DNA of 32,000 nucleotides from Candidatus Thorarchaeota archaeon (GTDB lineage: Archaea > Asgardarchaeota > Heimdallarchaeia > Hodarchaeales > Hodarchaeaceae): the NCBI GenBank assembly GCA_048882505.1, contig JBHLRO010000001.1, forward strand, positions 390,001-422,000. The letters are read 5' to 3'. Position 1 is the first letter of the stretch. Every line of letters begins with the position of its first letter. The notes beneath the pieces were generated by a model. That model had not been told where the DNA came from and made no database searches. It saw only the letters and a list, made by a program, of their open reading frames with translations. Both the position numbers and the translations under genes were made by a program. Shown one piece after another: positions 19,919-26,927 of this stretch.

Positions 19919-20236
19919 TCAGGGAATAGAGCAACCGCCGCCGATTGGAGGAAAAAATGAGATCTCACAAGATTGAGTGATCGTAGTAAATATTCCGTCA
20001 AGGGCATGGATGTTTCGACCATCCATCAATACAATAAAATCTGGTTTTAACGATTTTCCTTCTAAAAAAATCGTATCAGCTCCTTGGCCCAACTTTGTGT
20101 TAAACAAGGGAAATATGTGTAGTATAGGAGTCGGTTCTGGAATTTGAAGATCAATATTTTCAGGAAAAATGTCCTGTAATGAGGCAAAGAAAGTAAGCGT
20201 GACGTGAATGATGAGTACAGTCCTCCTATAACACAA
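19919..20236 (-). CDS. MoaD/ThiS/SAMP-family ubiquitin-like sulfur carrier with a C-terminal extension
   Basis: TFFASL start motif, DGRNIHALDG-x2-T, and FFPPIGGG followed by CSIP-stop. It lies directly downstream of an AOR-family gene. The start codon is uncertain. Confidence 0.85.
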   Translation of the reverse strand: MCYRRTVLIIHVTLTFFASLQDIFPENIDLQIPEPTPILHIFPLFNTKLGQGADTIFLEGKSLKPDFIVLMDGRNIHALDGIFTTITQSCEISFFPPIGGGCSIP

Positions 20237-20240
20237 GGGA

Positions 20241-24788: not shown

Positions 24789-24815
24789 ATTTAACTACAG
24801 GTTTGTTAAGAAAAG

Positions 24816-26927
24816 TCATCTGGTAAAATATACTTTTGTGTATTGTTTCAGCATCCGACGTGCAGAGAAATAAGGTGCGATCGTTTTAATAGAGTTACGC
24901 ATTATCTCTATCCAGTCTTCAGGAACATCGTTACCGTCTCTTCGATAGAATAGTGGACGAATTTCCTTTTCCAAGGTTGTATACAAGGAGACTAGATCGC
25001 TTTCATCCTGAGCATTGGGGTCATCCCAATCTTTATCTTCGCCAATAGCCCAGCCATTACTCCCATCGTATGCTTCTTTCCACCAACCGTCAAGTACTGA
25101 GAAGTTGATGCCTCCATTGATCCCACTTTTCATCCCAGAAGTTCCTGAAGCTTCCATTGGCCGACGTGGTGTATTTAACCATATGTCACAACCTTGAACT
25201 AGATATTGTGCTACCTGTAAATCGTAATCCTCAATAAACGCTATCCGACCGCCGAAGGAAGGATCGATCACTCGATTATAAACATTCTGAAGAACTTGTT
25301 TCCCTGGATCGTCTGCAGGATGCGCCTTTCCAGCAAAAATGATCTGAATAGGAGTATAGGGATCCAGAAGATTCTTTTTGAGGCGTTCAAGGTCTTGAAA
25401 GACCAGTCCTGCTCGCTTATATGTGGCAAAACGTCTAGCAAAACCAACTGTCAAAGTGTTTGGATCAAGGAGGGCGCCTGCTGCCAGTGTCTGTCGTGAA
25501 TCCTTTCCCTCCTCCGTTCTTTTCCATCTAGCTCGCTCTCTAATGAATCTAAACATGTTTACCCTTGCCCTTAGTCTTGCCTCCCAAAGTTCCTTACTGG
25601 AAATGTCATCGATGGCCCTCCACATCCCCTTTTTATCATGGCTCATCAGCCAATTATCCAAATGTTTTGAATAAAGCTCCTGAAGCGGGGAGCATACCCA
25701 TGTGGGTAAATGAACACCATTTGTTATGTTTTGGATTGCGATGTAATCTTGACTTCCGAGAGACGTATAGAGCTGTGTCCACATCTTACGACATACTTTG
25801 GTATTATGTTTCGAAACCGCGTTCTGATAACGACTGAATCTAATGGCAAGGGCGGTCATATTAAACCGAGAACCGTGACCACGACCCCAGTCAAATGCGC
25901 CTAACGCAAGGAACTCATCACGGCTGATACCTAACTCTTCCCAATATTTCTGGAAGTATTTTGAAACCAATTCAAACGCAAACTGGTCGTGCCCTGCGGG
26001 GACGGGCGTATGAGTCGTGAATATAGTTTGCTCTCGCACACGACGCTTTGCTTCATCAAATGACTTTCCACCTTCCACAATTTCGCGACGGAGAAGTTCT
26101 AAAGCAACGAATGCGGAATGTCCCTCGTTCAAATGAAACACCGCAGGATTATAACCCAAATAAGCTAGAACTCTAACCGCTCCAAACCCAAGGACAATTT
26201 CTTGTCGAATACGCATTTCCTGGTCGCCTCCATACAATCTTGAAGATAACCCCCGATTCCATGGATCGTTTTGGGGAATGTCGGTGTCCATCAAGATGAG
26301 AGGGGTTCTGCCTACTTGTAGCTTCCATATACGAAGCCAAATTGGCTTTGGAAAATTGATTTCCACCAAAAGTTGATCCTCCCCATTCTCTGTTACAGGA
26401 TTAATCGGGGTTTGATCGAATATTATATTCTCGTAGTGGGCCTGCTGCCAGCCGTTTCGTGGGATAATCTGTTTGAAATACCCTTGCGGATATACAAACC
26501 CTGATGCAATTAGTGGAATCCCTAGATCGCTACTCTCTTTTACGTGATCACCCGATAACACTCCTAATCCCCCTGAATAAATGTTCAGCGATTGATGGAG
26601 GCCAAATTCGGTTGAAATATATGCAATTTGTTCAGAATTATGATCAGGGTACGTTTCCTTAAACCAAGTATCCTGCAATGATAAATCGCGGTCGAATCTA
26701 TGAATAACCGCGTCATAACGTTTTAAAAATGATGGATCTTCTGCAATATATCGTAATCTAGCCTCGGGTATTAATTGTAACATACGTACAGGATTATGGC
26801 CAGTCGACACCCAAGTTGGATGGTCTAATCTTTTGAACAAGTCCCTGGTTGGAGAATGCCAAACCCAAAGTAAATTGTTGGCCAATTGCTCCAGATACTT
26901 CAGACGTACAGGGATATGAGAAGTCAT
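24816..26927 (-). CDS. glgP: Glycogen/alpha-glucan phosphorylase (GT35)
   Basis: LANNLLWVW, STEFGL, YSGGLGVLSGD, HLNEGH, TTHTPVPAGHD, ITNGVH, FARRFATYKR, AGKAHPAD and EASGTSGMK (PLP lysine). I prefer the ATG at 26927 (MTSHIP), which has a GAGGT RBS. Confidence 0.97.
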   Translation of the reverse strand: MTSHIPVRLKYLEQLANNLLWVWHSPTRDLFKRLDHPTWVSTGHNPVRMLQLIPEARLRYIAEDPSFLKRYDAVIHRFDRDLSLQDTWFKETYPDHNSEQIAYISTEFGLHQSLNIYSGGLGVLSGDHVKESSDLGIPLIASGFVYPQGYFKQIIPRNGWQQAHYENIIFDQTPINPVTENGEDQLLVEINFPKPIWLRIWKLQVGRTPLILMDTDIPQNDPWNRGLSSRLYGGDQEMRIRQEIVLGFGAVRVLAYLGYNPAVFHLNEGHSAFVALELLRREIVEGGKSFDEAKRRVREQTIFTTHTPVPAGHDQFAFELVSKYFQKYWEELGISRDEFLALGAFDWGRGHGSRFNMTALAIRFSRYQNAVSKHNTKVCRKMWTQLYTSLGSQDYIAIQNITNGVHLPTWVCSPLQELYSKHLDNWLMSHDKKGMWRAIDDISSKELWEARLRARVNMFRFIRERARWKRTEEGKDSRQTLAAGALLDPNTLTVGFARRFATYKRAGLVFQDLERLKKNLLDPYTPIQIIFAGKAHPADDPGKQVLQNVYNRVIDPSFGGRIAFIEDYDLQVAQYLVQGCDIWLNTPRRPMEASGTSGMKSGINGGINFSVLDGWWKEAYDGSNGWAIGEDKDWDDPNAQDESDLVSLYTTLEKEIRPLFYRRDGNDVPEDWIEIMRNSIKTIAPYFSARRMLKQYTKVYFTR

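Follow-up and report, generated by a model that had tools for sequence, protein, structure and literature searches.

Fusion of an aldehyde:ferredoxin oxidoreductase to hexulose-phosphate synthase in a Hodarchaeales archaeon: a predicted formaldehyde-oxidizing reverse ribulose monophosphate unit next to a glycogen phosphorylase gene

Archaea without a pentose phosphate pathway run the ribulose monophosphate (RuMP) pathway backwards for their pentoses, a direction that releases formaldehyde, and how the latter is disposed of where tetrahydromethanopterin (H4MPT) and Fae are missing is not settled. The two reactions concerned, those catalysed by PHI (6-phospho-3-hexuloisomerase) and by HPS (3-hexulose-6-phosphate synthase), are known from the HPS-PHI fusion of Thermococcales and others (NF041755) and from the bacterial HxlA and HxlB, and are reversed to make ribulose-5-phosphate in organisms that lack the pentose phosphate pathway. 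In methanogens and other users of H4MPT, HPS forms the C-terminal part of a Fae-HPS fusion (NF009833; Mhun1628 of Methanospirillum hungatei, Methanosarcina barkeri), and the HPS-fused Fae has been proposed to capture the formaldehyde at once (PMC5241800). The reverse RuMP pathway has already been inferred for Heimdallarchaeia (bioRxiv 10.1101/385732; PMC10307638), and reconstructions of the eukaryotes' archaeal ancestor invoke it for 'reducing power' (PMC10307638). Here we describe a locus of a Hodarchaeales genome (labelled G000; 4.3 Mb in 83 contigs, 94.5% complete) in which HPS is joined to an aldehyde:ferredoxin oxidoreductase (AOR). The gene of this fusion, AOR-HPS, lies together with an isomerase-like gene (PHI2) and a gene for a MoaD-like protein, not far from an alpha-glucan phosphorylase gene (glgP), within a stretch of 32,000 nucleotides (positions 390001-422000 of contig C1, G000:C1) that we call the window. 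Genes were called from a list of open reading frames (ORFs) combined with family profile scans.

AOR-HPS shares with Fae-HPS the C-terminal HPS, the presence of an N-terminal partner that would take the formaldehyde and, with it, the same proposed logic. The partner is however very different, a tungstopterin/[4Fe-4S] AOR of ~600 aa, with which formaldehyde would be oxidized to formate with reduction of ferredoxin and not bound to H4MPT. Both domains of the family were recognized above their cut-offs (AFOR_N, PF02730, 247.9 bits; AFOR_C, PF01314, 455 bits), and the region aligned end to end with the AOR of Pyrococcus furiosus (1aor, 526 bits), with which it shares the fold. In this alignment the CxxCxxxC motif, the fourth cysteine and the active-site glutamate and histidine are all conserved, the segments PCRACSIGCG, GPEFETVW, GATH and EFCKFTT of the fusion falling on cofactor-ligand and active-site regions of 1aor (which we take to be those of Cys288/291/295, Glu313, His448 and Cys494). 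With both domains, the four [4Fe-4S] cysteines and the two active-site residues in place, the protein has all the hallmarks of the AOR family, and its N-terminal domain is predicted to be a tungstopterin/[4Fe-4S] aldehyde:ferredoxin oxidoreductase. After a linker of at most seven residues comes the HPS domain (residues 604-811), which matches positions 1-205 of the HxlA profile (TIGR03128) with 207.1 bits, above the cut-off of 200. The six-frame search of the genome (211 bits) found no other HPS than the fused one. Congeners have fused HPS domains that share 75-80% identity with it. No Fae domain (PF08714) was detected in AOR-HPS, and the NF009833 match (154.9 bits versus a cut-off of 274) is confined to the HPS domain.

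The fusion is widespread: among the matches listed, AOR and HPS domains occur together in some 90 of 120 protein clusters, the source names of which point to Hodarchaeales, Thorarchaeota, Thermoplasmata, Nezhaarchaeota and Methanomethyliaceae. Multi-term literature searches found no description of an AOR-HPS fusion, which is thus an apparently undescribed fused enzyme. There is also a longer form of ~1000 aa (clusters P0038-P0045; locus L063), with two HPS-like stretches behind the AOR domain. In the present genome the fusion is one of nine AOR paralogues, the other eight having no assigned substrate.

The isomerase of this locus also departs from the described systems. What the original prediction called simply a PHI gene is indeed PHI-like, but it codes for a tandem double-domain protein of 383 aa and not for the single SIS domain of ~180 aa, scoring at least 160 bits, that is typical of HxlB. 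Each half matches TIGR03127 (E 1.9e-17 and 7.4e-21), the two halves being only 21% identical to each other, and the closest solved structures (9lj9, 1vim, 1jeo, 1m3s) are all PHI proteins. Compared to the HPS-PHI fusions, PHI is here separate, internally duplicated and below the HxlB cut-off, and HPS has been joined to AOR instead of to PHI. A precedent is provided by PHI-a and PHI-b of M. hungatei, paralogues that are active only together (PMC5241800). As in PHI2, there are two divergent PHI-like SIS units, but in PHI2 they are joined in one polypeptide, the activity of which is a prediction. PHI2 is the sole PHI-like gene of the genome. A second role for it as phosphoglucose isomerase (PGI) was considered and dropped; an archaeal PGI/PMI is present in the genome, though canonical PGI and cupin PGI are absent from it.

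The third gene codes for a MoaD/SAMP1-like beta-grasp protein. The window copy reaches 33 bits, against cut-offs of 49.5 and 60 (TIGR01687 moaD_arch and NF041918 SAMP1), and a profile made from 15 homologues matches the structures of Ta0895, MoaD and SAMP1 (E 1e-19 to 1e-7). All 15 match the SAMP1 and moaD_arch models of NCBIfam and have an invariant Gly-Gly; the window copy ends in FFPPIGGG followed by CSIP. At the place of the ATG start of the relatives the window has ATC, with AGGAGG just upstream, and the sole opener of the frame is a TTG at 20236 (region 20215-20236). MoaD-like genes also accompany aor in bacterial operons, as aorD and aorE in the aorABCDE of Aromatoleum aromaticum (PMC6365974). 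Compared to this operon and to the P. furiosus enzyme, the AOR described here is fused to HPS, has no genes of electron-transfer subunits alongside and would have as its substrate formaldehyde made in cis.

That the MoaD-like gene belongs with the AOR, as originally proposed, is supported by its recurrence next to AOR genes. In all three TACK-type contigs (3/3) the fusion has a ThiS/MoaD gene as its divergent neighbour, and the pairing is recurrent in this very genome, where a second gene of ThiS/MoaD-like type, coding for 99 aa that end in GGGSR, is found immediately upstream of a different AOR paralogue (731 aa; G000:C1:99000-109500, 4915-7544). The protein is most likely an AOR-linked accessory, a sulfur carrier for tungstopterin synthesis. 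Co-transfer of this gene with the fusion was considered; pairwise scores of such ~90-aa proteins do not separate the TACK copies from the paralogues of the genome itself. MoaE is located on another contig beside a MoaB-like gene, with no MoaD alongside (G000:C35, 2424-5754), and this pair lies 0.8 kb from a GH77 4-alpha-glucanotransferase gene. In an unusual trio, a third MoaD/ThiS-like gene (109 aa) is grouped with genes for a RuBisCO-like large subunit of 445 aa and for a 598-aa protein of MoxR-AAA+/vWA type (G000:C32:7000-17500, 3647-7135).

The association of the three genes is conserved. About 13 of the 22 genomes of the genus carry the fusion, and in all the readable congeners (10/10) the MoaD-like gene comes 8-17 nt after AOR-HPS, with PHI2 adjacent. 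PHI2 adjoins HPS in each of the 17 genus genomes in which the PHI2 flanks were read. Farther away, a PHI gene is located 2.5 kb downstream of the fusion in two contigs of another lineage; with the TACK-type contigs, adjacency around the fusion spans independent lineages, as expected of a conserved cluster. The relative orientation is much less constant. The arrangement of the genes on one strand in the order of the pathway, pointed out in the original prediction, is real in the window, but among fusion carriers PHI2 is usually downstream on the opposite strand, and at least eight other congeners have it convergent with AOR-HPS and the MoaD-like gene. Since PHI2 is upstream on the same strand only in G000, its near-identical relative G016 and G021, the pathway order is a derived rearrangement.

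The congeners that lack the fusion are equally informative. At the same locus they have a stand-alone HPS, convergent with PHI2, that is only 31-36% identical to the fused HPS domain and finds its best match in the HPS portion of the Fae-HPS family (NF009833, 197.6 bits); one genome (G019) has both the fused and the stand-alone version. Fae-HPS fusions, identical in N-to-C topology, occur in f4, a sister family within the class, and the carriers of AOR-HPS have no Fae. HPS is thus fused to Fae in a related lineage and to AOR here, and this is our strongest argument for a role of the AOR domain in formaldehyde consumption.

The gene content of the genome points in the same direction. The original prediction had suggested looking for H4MPT-related enzymes and other pentose routes, and profile searches of the genome found neither Fae nor Mch, nor G6PD, 6PGD, transketolase or transaldolase. 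Formate-tetrahydrofolate ligase and the alpha subunit of formate dehydrogenase (FDH-alpha) were not found in the genome either. The only match to PRK (45 bits, in a frame of 213 aa) was unconvincing, and a scan for the glycyl-radical motif of pyruvate formate-lyase retrieved a ribonucleotide reductase. RpiA is present. Since other pentose pathways were not found while RpiA, HPS and PHI2 are there, the reverse RuMP pathway is the only detectable pentose route.

Taken together, we consider it probable that PHI2, AOR-HPS and the MoaD-like gene make up an anabolic reverse RuMP unit in which formaldehyde is oxidized to formate, with glgP as a bystander. PHI2 would convert fructose-6-phosphate into hexulose-6-phosphate, which the C-terminal HPS domain would split into ribulose-5-phosphate and formaldehyde, RpiA then giving ribose-5-phosphate. 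The formaldehyde, possibly channelled, would be oxidized to formate by the abutting tungsten-type AOR domain, reducing ferredoxin. This would remove a toxic compound and at the same time pull an otherwise unfavourable cleavage, so that the AOR domain would stand in for the Fae/H4MPT that the lineage lacks. The chemistry is that of the original prediction, and it still seems the best reading of PHI2 and AOR-HPS. What the analysis shows directly is the identity of the genes, the conserved cofactor ligands, the gene content and the synteny; the flux direction, formaldehyde as substrate of the AOR domain, channelling and the role of the MoaD-like protein are inferred from these. The phosphorylase, with its fixed partner (see below), would be a neighbour inherited within the genus that feeds the general hexose-phosphate pool, neither dedicated to the pathway nor co-transcribed with it.

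Several observations weigh against this interpretation. The total TIGR03127 (HxlB) score of PHI2, 137.6 bits over two stretches, is below the curated cut-off of 160. The AOR domain is nearer to the broad-specificity AOR than to formaldehyde ferredoxin oxidoreductase (FOR), and the sequence gives no sign of formaldehyde specificity. No other MoaD-like protein of the group is as divergent as the window copy (40-48% identity), in which the customary ATG has been lost and four residues extend beyond the Gly-Gly. Every absence noted above depends on an assembly that is 94.5% complete, and catalysis by AOR-HPS is a prediction from sequence. Finally, the distance between glgP and PHI2 has remained at 5 kb or less despite several rearrangements, and this across three deep clades of the genus, mostly with a phosphofructokinase gene (PFK) between them, a persistence that could reflect selection for a hexose-phosphate neighbourhood.

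The layout of the locus is given in Table 1. The ORFs and family scans confirmed the gene set, the strands, the single opposite-strand gene and the two gaps of the original prediction, 272 nt between PHI2 and AOR-HPS and 4 nt from the stop of AOR-HPS to the TTG of the MoaD-like gene. In the larger gap, a run of five T (T5) is found 24 nt past the PHI2 stop and an A/T-rich box ~60 nt ahead of the GTG start of AOR-HPS. Read as terminator and promoter, these features would fit separate transcription of PHI2 and AOR-HPS. The spacer has no match in Rfam (the sole Rfam match was a chance miRNA), and a scan for bacterial promoters and terminators gave counts at the level of shuffled sequence, its bacterial model being inapplicable to archaea. 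Family scans of the rest of the window revealed no further carbohydrate genes.

Table 1. Features of the locus, with positions counted from the first nucleotide of the window.
Feature	Position	Strand	Evidence
AOR-HPS fusion, 815 aa	20241-22688	minus	AFOR_N, AFOR_C and HPS profiles
AOR domain, residues 1 to ~598	20895-22688	minus	AFOR_N 248 bits, AFOR_C 455 bits
HPS domain and stop codon, residues ~603-815	20241-20894	minus	TIGR03128 207 bits (cut-off 200)
PHI2, 383 aa, tandem double-SIS 6-phospho-3-hexuloisomerase-like	22961-24112	minus	TIGR03127 in both halves
Spacer PHI2/AOR-HPS, 272 nt	22689-22960	minus	T5 run and A/T-rich box
MoaD/SAMP1-like beta-grasp protein, 105 aa	19919-20236	minus	15-homologue profile against MoaD and SAMP1 structures
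Alpha-glucan phosphorylase (glgP)	24816-26957	minus	TIGR02094 786.8 bits (cut-off 191.7); PF11897 and PF00343
Helix-hairpin-helix (HhH) gene, 192 aa	24210-24788	plus	Weak C-terminal HHH; sub-threshold HHH_5 and DUF4332

The identity of glgP is clear. It is a GT35 alpha-glucan (glycogen/maltodextrin) phosphorylase with a DUF3417 N-terminal domain, matched in full length by TIGR02094 and carrying the pyridoxal-phosphate lysine motif EASGTSGMK. Its start is probably Met11, at 26927, judging from alignments to relatives that open at residues 5-15. The full-length match (787 bits) and the lysine motif are shared with other TIGR02094 phosphorylases, such as the maltodextrin phosphorylase of Thermococcales (NF041129). 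Compared to the latter, glgP scores 715 bits versus an equivalog cut-off of 1500, is outside any glycogen/maltodextrin operon and is always paired with the HhH gene. This HhH gene, for which a protein atlas search returned no informative match, converges on glgP, their stops being 27 nt apart, and lies 97 nt from PHI2 in divergent orientation. It adjoins glgP in the ten congener loci read (10/10, G015 included), and in every genome examined the two are convergent, even where glgP stands away from PHI2, so that they form a fixed pair.

The original prediction had placed glgP at the head of what could be a self-contained fermentative and biosynthetic module. In its strongest version, glucan mobilized by glgP would be deliberately routed, under common regulation, through PHI2 and AOR-HPS to pentose phosphate, formate and reduced ferredoxin. 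We regard this as doubtful. In its favour, orthologues of glgP (66-69% identity) are found near PHI2 in the congeners, at 5 kb or less in nine of the 13 genus genomes that could be resolved, spread over three deep clades of the PHI2 tree and in spite of inversions and deletions. Two arrangements account for them. In the first, glgP, HhH, PFK, a peptidase C69 and PHI2 follow each other in G009, G007, G011 (in these three a direct search placed glgP 3-5 kb from PHI2), G017 and the non-fusion G012, and G019 differs only by the lack of the peptidase. The second (glgP, HhH, PHI2) is that of G000, G016 and G021. A PFK (PF00365) is therefore located between glgP and PHI2 in six of the nine (for example in G009, locus L067, 10100-12326), which makes three or four hexose-phosphate genes clustered together. 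In the present genome the local PFK and the peptidase C69 have been lost, and a PFK paralogue of 34% identity remains on contig C4. The enzymes required to connect glgP with PHI2 are all encoded elsewhere in the genome (four PGM/PMM genes and the archaeal PGI/PMI), as is a GT5 glycogen synthase; the two [NiFe] hydrogenase large subunits of the genome are possible acceptors of the reducing power, and no alternative pentose route was detected.

Against this, an opposite-strand gene always comes between glgP and PHI2, and glgP, with an upstream region of its own, is a separate transcription unit. No conserved cluster or operon includes it. The connecting enzymes, PGM and PGI, are on other contigs, as are the synthase and the GH77 glucanotransferase, the glucan genes proper (glgP, GT5 and GH77) being scattered over three contigs. 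Conservation of the adjacency in relatives, on which the prediction depended, holds within the genus but vanishes beyond it, with none of the four resolved genomes outside the genus (0/4) and no phosphorylase near any of six distant contigs with AOR-HPS fusions (0/6). Within the genus, the resolved exceptions (G001, G003, G013 and G018) correspond to the non-fusion clade. In the class, glgP is missing from most of the relatives that carry HPS, and two genera (g8 and g5) keep HPS without any glgP. Synteny is just as good for unrelated genes nearby (two peptidases, a DegT-GFO fusion, an SSB-like gene, a thioredoxin and DnaJ), and for this reason inherited regional synteny suffices to explain the link of glgP to the locus. 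No 8-mer was shared upstream of glgP, PHI2 and AOR-HPS in at least three genomes each, although this was a weak test. A fermentative role finds no support in the genome, in which neither a transketolase, a transaldolase or a convincing PRK for pentose catabolism nor FDH-alpha or formate-tetrahydrofolate ligase was found.

One congener, G015, was treated as unresolved in these counts. Its glgP is 500 kb off, but the assembly looks concatenated, and distances in this 'single-contig' genome are for that reason unreliable. In the same genome the AOR-HPS frame is split within the HPS domain by a block of 6.4 kb that contains aIF2-gamma, a PIN protein and a truncated P-type ATPase (locus L057, 8873-15330), and which looks like concatenated contigs rather than a mobile element.

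Two other explanations concern the fusion itself. The AOR domain could act on another aldehyde, as a general detoxifier or on aldehydes derived from amino acids, the fusion to HPS serving only stability or co-expression. In agreement with this, its score with the broad-specificity AOR of P. furiosus is clearly higher than with the FOR structure (1b25, 352 bits), which leaves it outside the FOR subfamily, and the genome has the eight other AOR paralogues without an assigned substrate. We nevertheless find this explanation unlikely, since the fusion has been kept in several archaeal phyla with such a short linker, and since the parallel Fae-HPS of the sister family, together with the lack of Fae in AOR-HPS carriers, points to formaldehyde as the shared substrate of the partner.

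The pathway could also run forward, the AOR domain reducing formate or scavenging external formaldehyde and HPS fixing the formaldehyde onto ribulose-5-phosphate from nucleoside salvage to give hexose phosphate. HPS and PHI are reversible (PMC5241800), the use of RuMP in the forward direction has been predicted in another Asgard study (PMC11291895), and there is the RuBisCO-like gene. Enzymes of the AOR family are generally reversible too. Yet without transketolase and transaldolase ribulose-5-phosphate would not be regenerated, so that no assimilation cycle is possible, and with no other pentose route the reverse flux would be needed for growth unless pentoses were always salvaged. The reduction of formate to formaldehyde is, in addition, strongly uphill, and we see little chance that this is the physiological direction.

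Returning to the anabolic reverse RuMP unit, the formate produced has a possible destination. The genome has two tandem genes of the PurP family (PF06973, the formate-dependent FAICAR synthetase family; G000:C3:132818-134415), and within the genus this family appears in seven of the 13 carriers of AOR-HPS and in none of the nine non-carriers. The restriction to fusion carriers is probably a clade effect, but formate from AOR-HPS might feed purine synthesis via PurP. More speculatively, and with no great expectation that all its parts will hold, the locus of this Hodarchaeales clade could be seen as a hexose-phosphate branch point, where hexose phosphate derived from glycogen would be split between glycolysis (through the PFK, locally lost here) and an AOR-HPS shunt yielding ribose, low-potential electrons and formate. 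As formate would be the C1 donor for PurP, a single fused enzyme would provide purine nucleotides with their sugar as well as with a formyl carbon.

What is new here is the map of the glgP/PFK/PHI2 neighbourhood at the level of the genus, the replacement of a Fae-type HPS at the same locus, the second AOR-MoaD pair and the presence of PurP only in fusion carriers. The glycogen link adds little firm content to this, being a genus-level neighbourhood and not a module. The locus of these Hodarchaeales, which among known archaea are nearest to eukaryotes, suggests an answer to the question of formaldehyde disposal in archaea that run the RuMP pathway backwards without H4MPT and Fae, namely an AOR fused to HPS and kept together with the isomerase and a MoaD-like gene. 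AOR-HPS is a directly testable enzyme, and its role bears on how the metabolism of the eukaryotes' archaeal ancestor is reconstructed.

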